Source: Candidatus Rifleibacteriota bacterium
GTDB lineage: Bacteria > Muiribacteriota > Ozemobacteria > Ozemobacterales > Ozemobacteraceae
Assembly (NCBI GenBank): GCA_049325495.1
Contig: JBMOKV010000334.1
Coordinates: 1-13,864 of the forward strand
DNA: 13,864 nucleotides
Direction: 5' to 3'
The translations under genes and the position numbers were made by a program. Numbering within the stretch: the stretch's first letter is position 1; each line of letters starts with the position of its first letter. The notes beneath the pieces are model-generated. The model was not told the origin of the DNA. It saw only the letters and a program-made list of their open reading frames with translations, and did no database searches. Below, piece by piece: positions 1 to 7,169 of this stretch.

Positions 1-3000
1 GCAGCATTTGTGTTATTGAAAACCCTCCTTCAATTTCTATTGACAGTGTTACTGCTGTTCCGACTGTTGTTTACCTGAATCAAAAGAATCTGTCTGTCCA
101 GGTCGTGGTTCGCAACAGTGGACAGGCAACAGCAGTTCTTGAAGCCGCCAGCCTGACCTTTGATATAGGATCATATCAGCAAAGCCTTGTTTCACCGGCC
201 ATGCCTTATGAGCTTGCCGGTGGCGGTTCGACGGTGACCCTGGTATTCGATATTTCGGTCAATACCAGTTCTGCATCTGGATTGAGCACTTTCAATGCCA
301 ATGTAAAATGGTATGACAAAAACTGGGCAGATAATCAGGGCTATGTTAATGGCTCTACACCCAATGACAGCTGGACGATCAATTCGGTTGGTATTATTTT
401 GTCGTCGAACCTTACTTACAGCCCGACACAGGATGACTTCAACCGTAATCAGACAGTTTATATAAGATGTTACGGCCTGGCAGCCTTATCTTCATGGTAT
501 CGCGTAAGGCTTTACAATACTCAGATAGCACAGGCGGTTACTAGCCCTGGCGGTTGGATTATTCCGCCATCTCCCCAGCTTTCGGCCGACGGTGATGGTT
601 ATGTTGACCATCTGTATCCAATACCGGCAGCCGCTGTAATCGGAACCTGGAGCGTGGTCATCGATGATGGAACCAACACAGTTGCCGGTAACATGATGGG
701 TCTGCAATATTTCCGGGTCCAAAACCCCGGCGATCTGGTGGCTTCTTTGACTATCAGCCCTGCGTCTGTTTTTGTCGGCGAAAACTTTACGGTGACTATG
801 CTGGCATCGAATACGGTTTCGCAATCTTCGACCATCGATTACGCCTCGCCCTCGGAGCTGATCGATGCTTCAACTGAACCGAACTTTGACGGAAGCGCGA
901 CATTGATTTCAGGCCCCGACCCGGCAAGTATCACCGTAAAATCTCTCGATACCCAGACAATAAGTTATACTTATAGAGCCGACTCTGATACTGGGCTTGC
1001 GGGCGGTTACATGCTGACCGTTGCCCCAACATGGTATCTTGCCGGGTATGATCGAAATACTCTGGCAACCGTTTATTCTGGGAATGGGGTTTCAAACCCG
1101 ATTACGATTTACAGCCGTAAATTGCTGCTCTCGCCCGACTCTCTTGACTTTTTAACCCTCGAATGCGGCGAAACATTCAAAGTCGACGCAACGGTGCAGA
1201 ATATAGGAAATTACCAGCTTGACTATGTAAAATGGATAACCACCGATATGAACGGGCCGGCTGGTCTGAAAATCAGTAAGTCAAACCTGAGTATGAGCCC
1301 TGACCCGGTTAATGGGCTTGCCGGCCTATCAAACAAAGCTGCTTCGGCAACTCTTTTCGTGCCTTATAATAAAGAGGCGGGCAGTTACATTGCCACCATG
1401 TCGGTTTACAATGACCGCAATATGGATGACCTGCAGAGCATTGATGAGGCTTACGACCTTTTCAATGCCCGGGTTGTAGTTCCACCCTGCAAGAAGATTT
1501 TCGTTTCAGAGAGCGTCGTTGATCTTGGTGCCTGGCCAATCGGGCAGACCTCTTTGGGCCAGCCGGTAAACTATTTCAGCGGTGGTAACATTGCCCTTGA
1601 TGACGTCAAATTCATGCAGATTGTTGGCACCAATACGCCCGATTTCAATATTACATTGACACCAGACAATCCAGGCCCGATGGGGATTACTGACTCAGGA
1701 ATCGCCAGTGCGGTTGCCGTAGCGGTTGATACCGCCGGATTCTATATCGCCACCTGGACAATCTGGAATGATGCGGCCAATCCAGGGGTTGTCGATGCGG
1801 GAGAGGCCAGTGACACCTTTCAGGTGCATGTTCTGGTGGGAATAATGAATTTTGTTCTTGCACCGGCAACTCTGAATGCAGGCACGGTGGAACCATCTGC
1901 CCTTGAAATCTGCACCGGCCTTACTTTGACTAACGACGTGGCCGGCTTGCCATTGACCAAACTGAAGCTCGATGTTTTTGAGCTTTCAGACGGTGCTGGG
2001 CATGTTATCGCAACTGACAGCATTGCGATTTATCAGGTCGATAACCCAATTCCCGCAAAAGTCAACGCTGGTCAGGCCATACCCATAGATCTGGCTTTGT
2101 TTGTTCCTGCCGGAACTTTTGCGGGCACCTATTCTGGAACACAGTATGTCTATCACGACGACAACCTTAACGGCCAATGGGATGCCGGCGAATTCAGAGC
2201 TTCATTTATTCTTCAGTGCACGGTGCCACTGGTGCCCAAGGTTCAGGTAATGGTTGGAACGGTGGGCTTGGGCGGTATCGCGCCAAATACCTCGAAGATA
2301 GTAAGTTTTCCGTGTCGAAATACAGGTAACGTAGATTTGACCGGTCTGATGTGGGAAAAGGTTAAGCTGGTTTCAGGCGCCAATGAGATACCTGCGGTCA
2401 ACGCCAGTTTCCCGCCTTCAGAAATGTTTTCAGTTCCGATTGGCCAGTTTTTTACCCGGGAAATCGAAATCACGGTCCCCCCCGGGCAGCCCTTTGGTGT
2501 TTATAACAGTATTGCGCCGCAATTCTGGATATTTGCCGACATGCCGCCAACGGTTGATGGCGTCAGAACAGCAGGCGAGGCATCGTGCAGCTTTCAGGTA
2601 ACCTGTGAGGTCGGTGATCTTCTTGTTGATATCGTTGAAGCGAATCTTGCCGTAACCGGAGGTCCTAACAGTGTTTCAACTTCGGCGGCTTTCAATGCCC
2701 AGAATATCGGTTCACTGGCATTGGTAAACCTGAAGGCGACCGGCTCAGTTCTCGTTCCTTCGGTTGCTGGACCAATCAATATTGAAGCTTCTCAGAATTC
2801 GTTTACGCCGTCTTCGCTTGGCGGGGCAAATGCCGGTCAGAGCCGCAGCAGTGCCTGGTCGGTCAATATCCCGGCCAATGCTTCGGCAGGGGCCTACATC
2901 GGAACAGTAACAGTTTATGAAGACTCCAACTACAACAATGCCCAGGATGCAGGGGAAGCCTTTGCGCAAGTGCCGGTTCAATTGAACGTTCTGAGCCAGC

Positions 3001-4667
3001 CGGCAATAGATGTTAACCTGACACAGCTAGACCTTGGCTATGTGGGAAAAAATAACTCCAAGTCAGGGCAAATTATAATTACCAACGCCGGTAATGCAAT
3101 TGTAAATTCCCTTTATTTCTCAAAAGCTCCGTTGATCTTTGGAGCAAACAGCATTCCGGTTGGCAGTATCACCTTTGAAACTTTGCCAGCCATGCCATTG
3201 TCTCTCGATGTCGGTGACTCGGTTACTGCAACAGTAACTGTGACAATTGGTGCGGTTCAGGGTGCTTTTACCTATTCAGGTATCCAAAGAATGTTTGAAG
3301 ACGCTGACCTTGACTCAACCTGGGATGCCACTGAGGTCTCAGATACCTTCGAGCTGGTTATCAGTATTGGGGATAAGTTAATTTATGAAACCAATGCCAC
3401 AAATCCCACAGTTGCCTTTGGTAATCGCAATGTTAGTGCCACTTACAACCAGGCTGTAACCGTTTATGCCGGCTCTGCCGTGCCGTTGAACCGGGTAAAA
3501 TGGAAAGTTCTCGGGGCTTTTGAGGGCATCGACTATACTTTTCCGGTTGCCAGCCTGACTTTTACCCCTGCAACGGCCCAATTCATCGATGGTTTGAATA
3601 ATAGAGTTTTTCAGGCGGTTGCAGAGGTTGGCTTTGTTTCAGCAGGCTTATATGTTGCAACTGCCTCTTTCTACGATGATGACGACAATGATGGGGTAAT
3701 TGATGCAGCTGAAGCTTCCTGTTCATTTAATCTGTCTTTGACCGTTAACCCAGTATATGCTCTTGACCTGGTTCCGACTGTGGTTGATTTTGGCCAGGTT
3801 GCTCAGGGAGATGCGGTTAACAAGGAAATCATGTTCAGGAATAGCGGCAACATTCAATTGAGCAATTTCAGCTGGACCTTTTCAGCGCTGGACAAGGCTC
3901 CAGATCAAATTTTGCCGGCAAATTTGACCTATTCGCTAACCTTTACACCAGATCCTGTTTTGATGGGTGAATATGCCACCTCAACCGTTACCCTCTCGGT
4001 TGATGCGGCTCAACCTCTTGGCGTTTATGGCCCATCTGGTCCACAGACGATTCAGACCACCGATGGCACTGCTCCCACAGACTGGGCAAACTTTACCTGT
4101 GAAGTTGTAACCACCGGTGCTCCGACTTTCCAGCTTGCCTCTGGCAGCCTTTCTCAGGATATTGCCACCCTGTCTTTTTCGGCCACTGCACCTGACAACC
4201 GCTACTACATGTCTGCCTGGATCTGCCCAGGAACCGGTTCGGCCAACATTTCCTTTGTTACCTACAACGAGTTTGGCGAAGCGGTTGGTACCGTATCGGC
4301 GCAGATTGATTCAACTGGAAATCTCACCAGTAGTGGTGCGCCAATGGCGGTTGCAGACTCGGGTATTCTCGACAAAGTTCCCTATGAGCACCCTGACCAC
4401 CCGGGTGAAGACTTCTATTATTATCGAGTTTTTGTGGCGTTTGATTACACCTACAGCCAGGTTACTGCCAGCAATACCAGAATTATTCTTGGTAATACCA
4501 GCAATCCCGATGCTCCAAAAAATCGGGTCTGGTTTGATGGTGTCCAGTTGGAGCGAAGACGCGATGTGAATCAGACGAAACCAAGTGCATTTCATTCGAT
4601 CAGAACCATTTATTCGCCAACGCCGAAACAGACGATAACCGGAGAGGATCGCTACAATGAATGGTAA
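1..4667 (+). CDS. Giant secreted cell-surface repeat protein, 5'-truncated. The reading frame is open from base 3, and the GTG at 105 is only the first in-window start. It carries about 8 tandem ~127-aa Ig-like/CARDB-like beta-sandwich modules with NxGN and DxNxNGxxDAGEAS (Ca-binding-like) motifs, followed by a C-terminal CBM-like jelly-roll domain (aa 1342-1520 of the ORF, nt 4128-4664).
   Basis: The frame stays open to the left edge (..SICVIENPPSISIDSVTAVPTVVYLNQKNLSVQVVVRNSGQ..). The ORF is 4.5 kb with uniform Thr/Ser/Asn/Gly/Val-rich, Lys/Arg-poor composition typical of extracellular beta-rich proteins. The 'DAGEAS'-type motif recurs at a regular ~127-aa period (module ends at ORF aa 447, 564, 693, 823, 948, 1074, 1200 and ~1322). 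The C-terminal domain ends in 'VWFDGVQLE', reminiscent of the CBM4/9-type terminal strand. The stop overlaps the next start. Confidence 0.85.
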   Translation, partial: SICVIENPPSISIDSVTAVPTVVYLNQKNLSVQVVVRNSGQATAVLEAASLTFDIGSYQQSLVSPAMPYELAGGGSTVTLVFDISVNTSSASGLSTFNANVKWYDKNWADNQGYVNGSTPNDSWTINSVGIILSSNLTYSPTQDDFNRNQTVYIRCYGLAALSSWYRVRLYNTQIAQAVTSPGGWIIPPSPQLSADGDGYVDHLYPIPAAAVIGTWSVVIDDGTNTVAGNMMGLQYFRVQNPGDLVASLTISPASVFVGENFTVTMLASNTVSQSSTIDYASPSELIDASTEPNFDGSATLISGPDPASITVKSLDTQTISYTYRADSDTGLAGGYMLTVAPTWYLAGYDRNTLATVYSGNGVSNPITIYSRKLLLSPDSLDFLTLECGETFKVDATVQNIGNYQLDYVKWITTDMNGPAGLKISKSNLSMSPDPVNGLAGLSNKAASATLFVPYNKEAGSYIATMSVYNDRNMDDLQSIDEAYDLFNARVVVPPCKKIFVSESVVDLGAWPIGQTSLGQPVNYFSGGNIALDDVKFMQIVGTNTPDFNITLTPDNPGPMGITDSGIASAVAVAVDTAGFYIATWTIWNDAANPGVVDAGEASDTFQVHVLVGIMNFVLAPATLNAGTVEPSALEICTGLTLTNDVAGLPLTKLKLDVFELSDGAGHVIATDSIAIYQVDNPIPAKVNAGQAIPIDLALFVPAGTFAGTYSGTQYVYHDDNLNGQWDAGEFRASFILQCTVPLVPKVQVMVGTVGLGGIAPNTSKIVSFPCRNTGNVDLTGLMWEKVKLVSGANEIPAVNASFPPSEMFSVPIGQFFTREIEITVPPGQPFGVYNSIAPQFWIFADMPPTVDGVRTAGEASCSFQVTCEVGDLLVDIVEANLAVTGGPNSVSTSAAFNAQNIGSLALVNLKATGSVLVPSVAGPINIEASQNSFTPSSLGGANAGQSRSSAWSVNIPANASAGAYIGTVTVYEDSNYNNAQDAGEAFAQVPVQLNVLSQPAIDVNLTQLDLGYVGKNNSKSGQIIITNAGNAIVNSLYFSKAPLIFGANSIPVGSITFETLPAMPLSLDVGDSVTATVTVTIGAVQGAFTYSGIQRMFEDADLDSTWDATEVSDTFELVISIGDKLIYETNATNPTVAFGNRNVSATYNQAVTVYAGSAVPLNRVKWKVLGAFEGIDYTFPVASLTFTPATAQFIDGLNNRVFQAVAEVGFVSAGLYVATASFYDDDDNDGVIDAAEASCSFNLSLTVNPVYALDLVPTVVDFGQVAQGDAVNKEIMFRNSGNIQLSNFSWTFSALDKAPDQILPANLTYSLTFTPDPVLMGEYATSTVTLSVDAAQPLGVYGPSGPQTIQTTDGTAPTDWANFTCEVVTTGAPTFQLASGSLSQDIATLSFSATAPDNRYYMSAWICPGTGSANISFVTYNEFGEAVGTVSAQIDSTGNLTSSGAPMAVADSGILDKVPYEHPDHPGEDFYYYRVFVAFDYTYSQVTASNTRIILGNTSNPDAPKNRVWFDGVQLERRRDVNQTKPSAFHSIRTIYSPTPKQTITGEDRYNEW

Positions 4668-5307
4668 AATTAATTCAAATAAAAATTTGATTGTTCTGCT
4701 GGCAACGTTTCTTGTTGTTTTTTTCATGGTAGATGGGGCTATTGCCAAGAAGAAACCGCCTAAGGTTAAAAAGCCAAAACCTTCCGAGCTTGAGAAGAAT
4801 CAGGTGTATCAGGATATTCCGCTTAAAACGTTTTCGGCCATTGCGCCGGATAATGCCTATATTCTTTCAGGTTGGATCTGCCCTGGCAGTGGCAGCGCAA
4901 GACTTGCGCTGGTTACCTACAAGGGTGGCGGCAAAATTGAGGATTCGGCAGGGGTTGAAATCGCTTCGACCAGCGATTTAACCCTGCTGGGATTTGCCAA
5001 CGATGTGGGCATTGCCAATGCAAGAGGGTTCAATCATCCCGGTTACCCTGGTGCCGGTTTTCGTTATTTCAGGGTGTTTGCCCGGTTCAATTTCACTTCC
5101 GTTCCATCTATCAAAGCTGCTAGAATAATACTGCAGAACACCAGCAATGAAACTGCTTCATGTTCCGTGTGGTTTGATGGTATAAAATTAGAGAAAGCTC
5201 TGAAACCCGATCAGGAATATCCGACCAGTTACCATTCAATTGGTAATCTGTTGTCATCAGAATTCGTTGACACTCTTGAAGGAGGTCCGCAGTATTATGA
5301 ATGGTGA
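4657..5307 (+). CDS. Small secreted protein (216 aa) that is a stand-alone paralog of the giant protein's C-terminal CBM-like domain. It has an N-terminal signal peptide (h-region LIVLLATFLVVFFMV, probable cleavage after AIA) and a Lys/Pro-rich linker.
   Basis: It is about 40% identical by eye to aa 1342-1520 of the upstream ORF. Examples: SAIAPDNAYILSGWICPGSGSA vs SATAPDNRYYMSAWICPGTGSA; FRYFRVFARF vs FYYYRVFVAF; RIILQNTSNE..VWFDGIKLEK vs RIILGNTSNP..VWFDGVQLER; C-terminus ..GGPQYYEW* vs ..GEDRYNEW*. There is a GGAGAGGA RBS 9 nt upstream. The ATG overlaps the upstream stop (ATGAATGGTAA). Confidence 0.8.
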   Translation: MNGKINSNKNLIVLLATFLVVFFMVDGAIAKKKPPKVKKPKPSELEKNQVYQDIPLKTFSAIAPDNAYILSGWICPGSGSARLALVTYKGGGKIEDSAGVEIASTSDLTLLGFANDVGIANARGFNHPGYPGAGFRYFRVFARFNFTSVPSIKAARIILQNTSNETASCSVWFDGIKLEKALKPDQEYPTSYHSIGNLLSSEFVDTLEGGPQYYEW

Positions 5308-5854
5308 ACTGCATTTAAACAACAGAAAAGGTGCTTTGATGCTTATGCTTCTGGTAGTGATTGTTATCGGCGGCATTGTTGCTCTGCGTATGCTTCCACA
5401 GGAAGACGTAATTGCCAAGCGCGAAAAAGAAGAAAACCTACACAAGAATCTGAGCCAGATACGTGAAGCATTTGACCTTAAATGGCAGGCCGACGAAAAC
5501 TGGACTCCTGATTTGACCAACAAAGCAGGAATCCGAGCTGCATTGCAGACTCTTGCCAATGAAGGATTCCTGCGGGAAGAGGATATCCTTGATCCGACAG
5601 TTCCAACTTATCTTTGGGACACCTCTGACATCTATTACTGGAAAGCTTCAACCAATATTGCTTCAAATGCCAGTTTTGAACTTGAAGATCCGTCAGACCC
5701 AACTTTGATTGCTTCGTGGACCAAGGCTCCGGATACCGAAGCAGCAACGGTAACACAATATCTTGATGACAATATTCTTGATGATTACCCGCATCAGAAC
5801 AAGCTTGGAGCCCCGCTTCAGGGCGGTGGAACCTCGCTGATGATTGTTAAATGA
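5297..5854 (+). CDS. Small membrane-anchored protein (185 aa) with an N-terminus reminiscent of type IV pilin/pseudopilin: a short basic leader MNGELHLNNRKG followed by a ~21-aa hydrophobic helix ALMLMLLVVIVIGGIVAL. The remainder is a ~150-aa acidic extracytoplasmic domain.
   Basis: I chose the internal ATG at 5297 as the start rather than the ORF-track start at 5240. A GGAGG RBS sits 11 nt upstream. The ATG is embedded in the same ATGAATGGTGA stop/start overlap seen at 4657. Confidence 0.65.
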   Translation: MNGELHLNNRKGALMLMLLVVIVIGGIVALRMLPQEDVIAKREKEENLHKNLSQIREAFDLKWQADENWTPDLTNKAGIRAALQTLANEGFLREEDILDPTVPTYLWDTSDIYYWKASTNIASNASFELEDPSDPTLIASWTKAPDTEAATVTQYLDDNILDDYPHQNKLGAPLQGGGTSLMIVK

Positions 5855-5872
5855 ATATTTAAAACAGCCTTT

Positions 5873-7024
5873 TTACGGCTTCTGCATGCTTTCGAATATT
5901 TTGCCGGCCCAATCGCGGGCAATCTTGCTGCCTTCATTCCCCCAGAAATGTACGCCATCGCCGCCGTTATCGGGGTAGTGAGTGTGGGGGCGAGAATCAA
6001 TGAAACTGCCGTATTTTTCGGCTTCGGCTTTCAGATTTTCATACAACCTGTTCTGTTTCTCAGTGGGCTTTTTATCGGCCCGACCGTTTGGGGGGCCGAC
6101 CCAGACGATCTGGCAACCTGCTTTTTTGGCAATATCGCAGACCGATTTTACCTGCGATCTGATTGCTTCCGGTGAAGCGCCAATCATGTTCGCGCCAAGG
6201 GAAAAAACGATTATTCCAGGTTTGAAGTCTTTGATAAGTTTGTTTAGATTCGGGGTTGAGCGAGGAGTTCGCCAGTCGGCCGGCTGATCGATGCGGCTCT
6301 GCTCGTCTTTGGCAAAATACCCTGATTTCCCAACAGTTTCATTGAGATACCATGATGGTGATGAGCCTGAAACCCCAACGGTCGTGATCGCCGCGCCGGT
6401 GCTGCGCATAAGATCATCCATGGCTTTACCGTAAATTCCACAGGTGTGAGAATCGCCGATATGCAGAACTCTGCTTTCGGGGGTAATCAGTGGCCCGCCG
6501 GACCTGCTGGAATTTTCATTGCCGGTAACTGAAGCGGAAGGAGCTGGGTTAGTCTCTGAGCTGCTCATTGTTTCATCGGTTTCTGAGGTGTTTGGGGTGT
6601 CGCTTACTATCTGCCTGTCGGCTTTTTCAGATTTTGCCGGCGCAAGTCTGAGATTCCAGCCGACCAGAATAAGATCGGGATTTTTTAGAAGAGACGGGTA
6701 GCGGTCAAGGTTCCATGAGACCAGGTCACGCCATCGACCGGCATCGCCAAGAAATTTTCGTGCAATGCCTGAAAGGGTGTTGCCTTTGACCACCAGGTAG
6801 TCGCCGGATGAGGATGAAGAACCTTCATTCTCATTGGATGAGTCGGTTATAAGGTCAGATATTTCATCTGAAATATCATCGATTTCTTCAATCAACGAAT
6901 CGGTACCATCTATAGAAAATTTGATTTCGACTTCTTCTTCGGTAAAGGGGTTTTGGGCAAACCCCGGATCAGAAGAAACTATTGATGCCATTAAAATCAG
7001 CGGAATCATCTTTCGAGCTTTCAT
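5873..7024 (-). CDS. Secreted LysM-domain + SGNH/GDSL-family hydrolase (383 aa). Likely a cell-wall (peptidoglycan or glycan) esterase/deacetylase-type enzyme.
   Basis: The start is set at the internal Met (MKARKMIPLILMASIVSS..), which has an AGGAGGG RBS 5 nt upstream and a signal-peptide-like N-terminus. An acidic Ser/Asp/Glu linker follows. The LysM motif is 'DYLVVKGNTLSGIARKF..LVSWN..LILVGWNLRL'. The SGNH blocks are all present: I 'HIGDSHTCG', II 'GVSGSSPSW', III 'FSLGANM', V 'DGVHFW'. Confidence 0.8.
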   Translation of the reverse strand: MKARKMIPLILMASIVSSDPGFAQNPFTEEEVEIKFSIDGTDSLIEEIDDISDEISDLITDSSNENEGSSSSSGDYLVVKGNTLSGIARKFLGDAGRWRDLVSWNLDRYPSLLKNPDLILVGWNLRLAPAKSEKADRQIVSDTPNTSETDETMSSSETNPAPSASVTGNENSSRSGGPLITPESRVLHIGDSHTCGIYGKAMDDLMRSTGAAITTVGVSGSSPSWYLNETVGKSGYFAKDEQSRIDQPADWRTPRSTPNLNKLIKDFKPGIIVFSLGANMIGASPEAIRSQVKSVCDIAKKAGCQIVWVGPPNGRADKKPTEKQNRLYENLKAEAEKYGSFIDSRPHTHYPDNGGDGVHFWGNEGSKIARDWAGKIFESMQKP

Positions 7025-7104
7025 TTTCCCTCCTGTACGCCATGGCGGGTAATCAAACCACATTTATAATACCAGAAAACCGGAAAAAGGTTTTAATTTG
7101 TTGA

Positions 7105-7133
7105 TTGTATTAAATCCTGAGGTCTTCTATAAT
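7105..7133 (+). promoter_or_regulatory. Putative sigma70-type promoter for the MVP-like gene: -35 TTGTAT, 17-nt spacer, -10 TATAAT.
   Basis: The hexamers were read directly from the sequence, with a perfect -10 and 17-nt spacing. It lies ~37 nt upstream of the RBS/ATG at 7170. Confidence 0.5.
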
Positions 7134-7169
7134 TTTATCAGGATGATTACTTTAAGAGGAGACAGGAAG

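Follow-up and report, generated by a model that had tools for sequence, protein, structure and literature searches.

Tandem Ig-like modules with EF-hand-type loops as a candidate calcium rod in a giant protein of Candidatus Rifleibacteriota

What kind of bacterial protein repeats an acidic, calcium-loop-like motif at nearly constant intervals, and what could such an array do? The question is raised by a giant gene at nucleotides (nt) 3–4667 of a contig from Candidatus Rifleibacteriota bacterium (GenBank assembly GCA_049325495.1, contig JBMOKV010000334.1, forward strand; the whole stretch of 13,864 nt is called the window), in which an original prediction, made from the letters alone, had described a surface protein built from repeated modules. 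We investigated the gene by profile searches, predicted structures, and comparison with relatives, and we favor, with moderate confidence, the reading that its product is an exported giant protein carrying an eight-module calcium-loop rod. That the modules are tandem immunoglobulin (Ig)-like domains with EF-type loops is very probable; that the loops bind Ca2+ is, on sequence comparison, likely; and that the array serves as a rigid spacer of an extracellular or surface protein is a proposition about evenly balanced.

A giant reading frame with eight tandem modules

On the + strand, frame 3 runs without interruption from nt 3 to a stop codon at nt 4665–4667, giving 1,554 codons plus the stop (3..4667), and these make up the 3′ part of the giant gene. 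Residues are numbered here from nt 3 and marked p; the original prediction counted from a GTG at nt 105, and its numbers equal p minus 34. Because the gene has no in-frame stop upstream within the window, its 5′ end lies outside, as had been predicted, and homologues run at least 1,500–2,500 amino acids (aa) further toward the N-terminus and begin with Sec-type signal peptides. The frame is best explained as encoding the C-terminal 1,554 residues of a predicted Sec-exported giant protein of roughly 3,000 residues.

Eight tandem modules of 118–129 aa each occupy p380–1372 (nt 1140–4118). A hidden Markov model (HMM) trained on six modules of the giant protein returned eight copies (p396–495, 499–616, 619–744, 747–873, 875–999, 1001–1125, 1127–1252, and 1254–1342); the two copies outside the training set were recovered with E = 1.8e-17 (module 1) and E = 5.8e-8, and a leave-one-out test on each training module gave E from 9e-15 to 1e-18, which bears out the earlier count of about eight tandem modules of ~127 aa. 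The HMM envelope of the array (p380–1356, nt 1140–4070) agrees with the span of ~1100–4070 proposed before, and the DAGEAS-like strings at p598, 727, 856, 982, 1108, and 1234 are those previously placed at 564, 693, 823, 948, 1074, and 1200. The periodicity on which the original prediction depended is both significant by HMM and regular, the invariant Glu of the loop recurring at p482, 601, 730, 859, 985, 1111, and 1237 (spacings of 119, 129, 129, 126, 126, and 126 aa). An alignment of 33 modules, taken from the giant protein and five relatives, gives the consensus 'D.G...N.GN..L..LK' near the module start and 'G.Y..T...Y.D.N' ahead of the loop, in keeping with the opening strand and the 'G.Y.GT..V.' string noted earlier.

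Modules within the giant protein share only 15–29% identity, and Tandem Repeats Finder detected no nucleotide-level tandem repeats in nt 1–4667. The array is therefore ancient, and the null result at the DNA level rules out a recent or slippage-type repeat expansion. Module pairs 2+3, 4+5, and 6+7 are mutually in register, with 1+2 and 3+4 one module out of step, which points to an older two-module unit (a super-period over nt 1140–3758).

An EF-hand-type loop in the last hairpin

The strict EF-loop pattern D.[DN].[DNS][GNDS]..[DS]..E matches the giant protein five times (p471, 719, 974, 1100, and 1226), against a chance expectation of 0.0037 per shuffled sequence; two or more matches occurred in 0 of 20,000 shuffles. 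These five canonical 12-residue loops, like all modules on the + strand, belong to module 1 (p380–497, nt 1140–1493; loop DRNMDDLQSIDE, nt 1413–1448, with Ser at position 9), module 3 (p617–745, nt 1851–2237; DDNLNGQWDAGE, nt 2157–2192), module 5 (p873–1000, nt 2619–3002; DSNYNNAQDAGE, nt 2922–2957), module 6 (p1000–1126, nt 3000–3380; DADLDSTWDATE, nt 3300–3335), and module 7 (p1126–1252, nt 3378–3758; DDDNDGVIDAAE, nt 3678–3713). They carry Asp at position 1, Asp or Asn at 3 and 5, Gly, Asn, Ser, or Asp at 6, Asp or Ser at 9, and Glu at 12, and position 8 is hydrophobic in several of them (W, W, and I).

Two loops are degenerate. Module 2 (p497–616, nt 1491–1850) has DAANPGVVDAGE (nt 1770–1805), which retains Asp1, Gly6, Asp9, and Glu12 and has lost positions 3 and 5; module 4 (p746–874, nt 2238–2624) has the lengthened DMPPTVDGVRTAGE (nt 2538–2579), in which only the loop ends are retained. 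Module 8 (p1253–1372, nt 3759–4118) is an ASH/PapD-like Ig domain with a short plain hairpin in place of the loop, here and family-wide (the loop is missing in 28 of 29 full-length relatives). The original prediction had called the first motif degenerate and had placed a degenerate eighth at ~1322; the nearly canonical loop of module 1 and the plain hairpin of module 8 correct it on both counts.

Across the 33 modules, the only invariant columns are Asp1 and Glu12 of the loop, and a Tyr eleven residues ahead of the loop (p1091 in module 6) is nearly invariant. In the 29 full-length relatives, Asp1 is found in 93–100% and Glu12 in 76–100% of sequences per module for modules 1–7, Gly is the commonest residue at position 6, and positions 3 and 5 are Asp or Asn in ~80–100% for modules 1, 3, 5, and 7 vs. 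~55–70% for modules 2, 4, and 6. Such columns are what a Dx[DN]xDG calcium loop would be expected to show; this motif coordinates calcium almost identically in at least 12 unrelated structural contexts (PMC3123361). The calcium-loop reading of the original prediction holds for spacing and conservation, which are those of a 12-residue EF-hand-type Dx[DN]x[DN]G..D..E loop, but only five of the eight modules carry canonical loops. The inter-domain Ca2+ site for which it had proposed to look does not stand: each loop supplies its full ligand set from within one module, so the site would not be shared. The helix-loop-helix flanks of an EF-hand are absent, the AlphaFold model placing the loop between two β-strands, and the element is EF-hand-like rather than an EF-hand domain.

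Fold of the modules and relation to known domain families

An AlphaFold2 model of modules 6 and 7 (p1000–1252), built on 37 in-register di-module sequences, is all-β (mean predicted local distance difference test score, pLDDT, 95.4; predicted template modeling score, pTM, 0.79), with a linker of about 4 residues between the modules and the loop lying between the last two strands of each (model residues 101–113 and 227–239). A Foldseek search of the PDB with the di-module returned tandem ASH/PapD-like Ig domains, with matches to hydin-type ciliary central-pair proteins (7sqc and 9ijj), the SPD-2 domain of CEP192 (7ptb), and a P. gingivalis protein of unknown function (2qsv). The modules are predicted to adopt the PapD-like/MSP β-sandwich fold, closest to ASH/PapD-like domains (hydin, CEP192, and VesB) rather than to CARDB proper. 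Of the Ig-like/CARDB-like β-sandwiches proposed earlier, the Ig-like part agrees with the high-confidence model and the CARDB part gives way to ASH/PapD.

Sequence profiles give a similar picture. The whole protein reaches 44.6 bits against the PF22544 family (HYDIN/CFA65/VesB-like Ig; threshold 25.5), driven by module 8 (p1254–1333, E = 1.8e-11); none of the loop-bearing modules scanned singly exceeded the threshold (best E = 0.069), and NF012200 (choice-of-anchor D) was not reached (25.2 bits vs. a cut-off of 45). The body fold of the modules is like that of the ASH/PapD/MSP Ig domains represented by PF22544 and NF012200, yet the seven loop-bearing modules fall below the family thresholds, and they differ in carrying a 12-residue EF-hand-type loop in the last hairpin, which is not known in the matched structures.

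NPCBM_assoc (NEW3, PF10633) matches module 5 with 36 bits (threshold 24.4) at p933–971, aligning only profile positions 37–75 of 78, and 9 of the 33 modules match it at E below 1. A PDB sequence-profile search with the module returned only N-terminal domains of GH123 (E = 0.008) and no calcium-binding relative; the GH123 entries 5l7v and 5fqe were matched by both sequence and structure. What the modules share with CARDB, NEW3, and GH123 is the strand features ahead of the loop ('...ip.na.aG.Y.gtvtv'); the CARDB and NEW3 matches, however, span about half a module and stop short of the calcium loop. DUF1573 remained under threshold in the giant protein. With the modules below the thresholds, in the HMM scans, of the Pfam and NCBIfam domains that the original prediction listed, 'undescribed variant' was a fair description.

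Ahead of the array, nt 3–1139 (+) encode Ig-like domains other than the array modules and outside the ~127-aa period. The matches here are CARDB-like (PF07705, p24–78, the only CARDB match in the protein, 15.5 bits vs. a threshold of 22.7) and MG2-like (p178–230, 17.2 bits), both under the cut-off, and the module HMM gives only E = 0.17. No known anchor or enzymatic domain was found in Pfam/NCBIfam scans of the whole protein, the 33 modules, two full-length relatives, and an N-terminal fragment; these scans returned Ig-family matches only, weak or partial.

Distribution of the family

A word-indexed homologue search found seven relatives, all from Riflebacteria metagenome-assembled genomes (MAGs) or metagenomes, and when 1.84 billion representatives were searched exhaustively with a profile, 3,123 proteins had E below 1e-3, 99 of them below 1e-30. 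About 50 top clusters (at 50% identity) share the full design of a signal peptide, an N-terminal region, eight modules, and a C-terminal stretch. Full-length relatives have ~2,750–3,800 aa; their region ahead of the array (1,570–2,540 aa) is nearly without domain annotation, the number of modules is exactly eight in nearly all, and the C-terminal stretch of ~200 aa ends in [YF]-x-[EQ]-W. Same-numbered modules of orthologues are closest to each other (41–56% identity vs. the 15–29% within one protein). Weaker profile matches cover just one of the two elements, the sandwich body or the acidic loop; those to the body are repeat proteins of generic CARDB, DUF11, or ASH type whose C-terminal anchors differ. 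In this search, the combination of body and loop is almost confined to the Riflebacteria family.

A survey of one genome per GTDB species yielded 54 loci encoding the C-terminal part, all from Riflebacteria/Ozemobacteraceae MAGs except two records with doubtful organism labels, with 2–4 paralogues per genome, often in tandem. The closest relative (DYKG01000074.1, locus L002) has 90% aa identity over the last 302 aa and 84–88% DNA identity over the aligned stretches. It was deposited as 'Candidatus Methylomirabilis sp.', and another member as 'Erysipelotrichia bacterium' (the loci concerned are L002, L003, and L038, SABV01000026.1); since every other named locus is from Riflebacteria or Ozemobacteraceae, these labels are probably binning or taxonomy errors. 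Locus L001 (positions 1–11853 of ERZ21831104 ctg97078l) holds tandem giant paralogues with a pilin-like gene between them. Both of its paralogues appear to be frameshifted; at ~4630–4691, for example, a 590-aa, signal-peptide-bearing N-terminal open reading frame (ORF) is split from P0002. The frameshifts are probably assembly errors, and in that case the proteins are truly longer (~3,000 aa) than gene calls in the databases suggest.

The proposed calcium rod

In the mechanism that we propose, one Ca2+ would be bound per canonical loop, coordinated by four side chains (positions 1, 3, 5, and 9), by the backbone carbonyl of position 7, and by the Glu of position 12 as a bidentate ligand. In Ig topology, the hairpin of the last two strands lies at the N-terminal pole of the domain, the pole of the complementarity-determining region 3 (CDR3) or FG loop. 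The corresponding F-G hairpin would sit at the N-terminal pole of each module, beside the short linker from the preceding one, and ions bound there would make the module more stable and the junction stiffer. As a whole, the array would then be a rod, by our estimate a few tens of nanometers long, and this rod would set the variable N-terminal region (~1,600–2,500 aa) apart from the conserved C-terminal jelly-roll and its Y-x-E-W tail. The analysis shows the periodicity, the conserved motif, the predicted fold, the taxonomic range, and the signal peptides; that the loops bind Ca2+, that the array is rigid, that the protein lies outside the cell or on its surface, and which of its ends is anchored are points that we infer.

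Several observations weigh against this proposal. The AlphaFold2 models carry no ions, the closest solved structures include no calcium-binding domain, and the flanks of the loop are strands instead of helices, so the loop is no EF-hand proper. Ligands at positions 3 and 5 are lost in two of the seven loops here and in 30–45% of module 2, 4, and 6 loops family-wide, so that stiffening would not be possible at every junction. The placement of the loop at the junction is deduced from general Ig topology rather than from measured distances. Finally, Riflebacteria are thought to have two membranes (10.1101/2021.05.31.446380), and no route for the giant protein across the outer membrane was identified, so its surface location is assumed.

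C-terminal domain, companion genes, and possible tethering

An AlphaFold model of p1253–1554 (pLDDT 87.7) consists of module 8, a β-sandwich of ~145 residues, and a tail of ~25 residues. The sandwich (p1377–1520, nt 4131–4562, +; last strand VWFDGVQLE) has a jelly-roll fold, and its best match by structure takes in a galactose-binding module from a bacterial sialidase. No Pfam family matched at threshold (best BetaGal_ABD2, E = 0.0039, in 3 of 32 members), and a PDB sequence search with the domain found no match. The lectin-like domain of the original prediction accordingly finds an echo in the jelly-roll and in the sialidase match but not in any Pfam family. The conserved tail (p1521–1554, nt 4563–4664, +) ends ...SP......G...Y-N-E-W-COOH; its pLDDT is below 50 for model residues 281–302, and it is predicted to be disordered from ~p1531. 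In 32 sequences, P, G, and the terminal W are invariant and Q, P, and Y near-invariant, and 48 top representatives end in [YF]x[EQ]W. A profile search found the C-terminal domain only in giant proteins and small stand-alone ones, so a role as a general sorting domain on varied passengers is not supported.

Two companion genes follow on the + strand. The first (nt 4657–5307) encodes 216 aa, in which a signal peptide and a Lys/Pro-rich linker precede the C-terminal domain and tail as a stand-alone copy (...QYYEW), 41% identical to the C-terminus of the giant protein over 178 aa (BLASTP, E = 3e-42). The same arrangement is present in L002 and L035, and similar proteins of ~215 aa (P0156–P0166) occur in metagenomes. 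The second is pilin-like (185 aa from the ATG at 5297, nt 5297–5854; listed ORF 5240–5854). Of the features of a class III signal peptide, its N-terminus, ...NNRKG followed by ALMLMLLVVIVIGGIVAL, has the basic stretch, the Gly at −1, and the hydrophobic helix and lacks Glu5, which is missing in 18 of 18 homologues. A profile of 13 homologues matches Geobacter PilA-N (7tgg, E = 0.0026) and GspG (5wda, E = 0.58), and TIGR01710 GspG matches the gene product with E = 0.039.

The same 11-nt out-of-frame stop/start overlap, ATGAATGGTRA, lies at both junctions (nt 4657–4667, ATGAATGGTAA; nt 5297–5307, ATGAATGGTGA), and its two readings are ...[Y/N]-E-W-stop for the upstream gene and Met-Asn-Gly for the downstream one, which is why homologues of the downstream gene begin MNGK. 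The shared overlap implies translational coupling. In 19 of 51 loci, a gene whose product ends in the C-terminal domain is followed immediately by a homologue of the pilin-like gene, always close and mostly overlapping.

These data bear on which end of the rod is held. Conservation within the family is highest in the C-terminal domain and tail (42% mean column identity), whereas the N-terminal region is variable (~1,570–2,540 aa), and a pilin-like gene is coupled; the earlier picture of a stalk that presents the C-terminal domain is therefore doubtful, and these features would fit a C-terminus used for anchoring or assembly no less well than one that is presented. One alternative goes further: the protein would be fixed by its C-terminus to a type-IV-filament-like structure, with its variable N-terminal region carried outward by the rod. 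The jelly-roll and the disordered Y-x-E-W tail would dock on the downstream pilin-like product, for example by strand addition; the rod would keep the physical role proposed above, with a polarity opposite to that first pictured. Besides the contrast in conservation, it would account for a tail conserved though predicted disordered in the monomer, for the pilin-like character of the next gene (7tgg, and the GspG matches with E of 0.039–0.58) with its overlaps at both junctions in the window, and for the occurrence of the C-terminal domain as small stand-alone secreted proteins. Yet 32 of the 51 loci have no downstream pilin-like gene, the pilin-like match is marginal and lacks the conserved Glu5, and the window holds no genes for pilus or type II secretion machinery. 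We regard this alternative as possible though unlikely, and the same holds for its extension, that the C-terminal module could define an undescribed Riflebacteria-specific attachment or assembly system in which calcium-rod proteins are C-terminally tethered to a type-IV-filament-like component.

Other readings and known analogues

Somewhat less probable than tethering is that the protein is an S-layer or sheath subunit, with Ca2+ loops mediating lattice assembly between subunits, as happens in calcium-dependent S-layers, instead of stiffening a single rod. A giant, Sec-exported, Ig-rich protein with 2–4 often tandem paralogues per genome would suit such a role, and NCBIfam NF033506 ('putative S-layer protein') gives a weak match; this match, however, scores 20.6 bits against a cut-off of 110, neither SLH nor another known S-layer anchoring domain was found in the domain scans, a full ligand set per loop suits intramolecular sites, and ~3,000 aa is large for a lattice subunit. 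The least probable of the three is that the acidic loops are not structural Ca2+ sites at all and serve in contact with a ligand or mineral (other cations, cationic polymers) or as a tight turn required for folding: the calcium role comes from sequence comparison, positions 3 and 5 vary in alternate modules, and the nearest structural relatives bind no metal, but positions 1, 3, 5, 6, 9, and 12 are retained at exactly the distances of an EF-hand and position 8 is hydrophobic in several loops, which a turn requirement alone would hardly explain, and binding of Ca2+ by the Dx[DN]xDG pattern is known from many unrelated folds (PMC3123361).

The calcium rod that we favor has known analogues. Like the B repeats of staphylococcal Sdr proteins (PF17210), the array consists of tandem modules of ~110–130 aa in a large exported protein, each with a strand-DxNxNGxxDxGE-strand hairpin. 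The loop of an Sdr B repeat lies near the domain start, whereas here it lies in the last hairpin of an ASH-like fold, and the giant protein lacks an LPXTG anchor and SD repeats. The Sdr B repeats are CnaB-type domains, each with an EF-hand loop; SdrD becomes compact when its loop binds Ca2+, and SdrE melts at a higher temperature in the presence of Ca2+ (PMC3775735). The PF17210 profile (SdrD_B) scores 10.7 bits (threshold 29.7) on the giant protein, aligning p970–1007 with profile positions 6–44. The resemblance is functional and local, not domain homology.

Tandem β-sandwich rods stiffened by Ca2+ near the junctions are also found in RTX adhesins (MpIBP and LapA), SiiE, and cadherins. In RTX-type giant adhesins, the junction sites are formed by two neighboring domains, and the proteins leave the cell by type I secretion with C-terminal RTX signals; here the EF-type loops are self-contained, and relatives carry N-terminal Sec signal peptides. 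The Pfam/NCBIfam scans of the giant protein found no RTX repeats, and its C-terminus is a jelly-roll with a YxEW tail. An identity as an RTX/type I secreted adhesin was rejected on the Sec signal peptides of relatives and the lack of RTX matches.

Searches of the literature on Riflebacteria, Ozemobacter, and Rifleibacterium yielded no account of this giant protein family. The fold, the loop motif, and the principle of a Ca2+-stiffened Ig rod are already known separately, and the principle recurs among long surface rods of bacteria. What is new is a self-contained EF-hand-type loop in the last hairpin of an ASH/PapD-like domain, a feature that current domain libraries do not capture, together with the repetition of this combination in a fixed eight-module array and its occurrence in very large, otherwise unannotated proteins confined to one uncultured phylum and bearing a conserved YxEW module. 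The family provides a defined module for a domain database and is a likely major envelope protein of Riflebacteria, and hence a candidate for cryo-electron tomography and proteomics; its C-terminal tail and the coupled pilin-like gene offer a lead on protein attachment in a group thought to be diderm.

Other genes in the window

Beyond the companion genes, nt 7098–9629 (+) encode an 843-aa protein that matches the eukaryotic major vault protein (MVP), making this a bacterial MVP-like gene, with the MVP shoulder domain (E = 1.8e-28), a Vault_3 repeat, and an SPFH/Band 7 domain followed by a long coiled-coil-like tail; the copy in L035 is 90% identical. The gene at nt 5873–7063 (−), conserved in L002 and L035, encodes a secreted protein with an acidic Ser-rich linker, LysM, and a GDSL/SGNH-type hydrolase domain (Pfam matches weak). 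Two neighboring paralogues at nt 9991–10992 (−) and 11008–12042 (−) are galactose-1-phosphate uridylyltransferase-like (HIT superfamily), and the latter also matches DUF4921 and DUF4931. A 132-aa ORF at nt 13036–13434 (−) is composed almost entirely of Asp and Glu and accounts for the TTC/TCT-rich tandem arrays found by Tandem Repeats Finder at nt 13039–13332.

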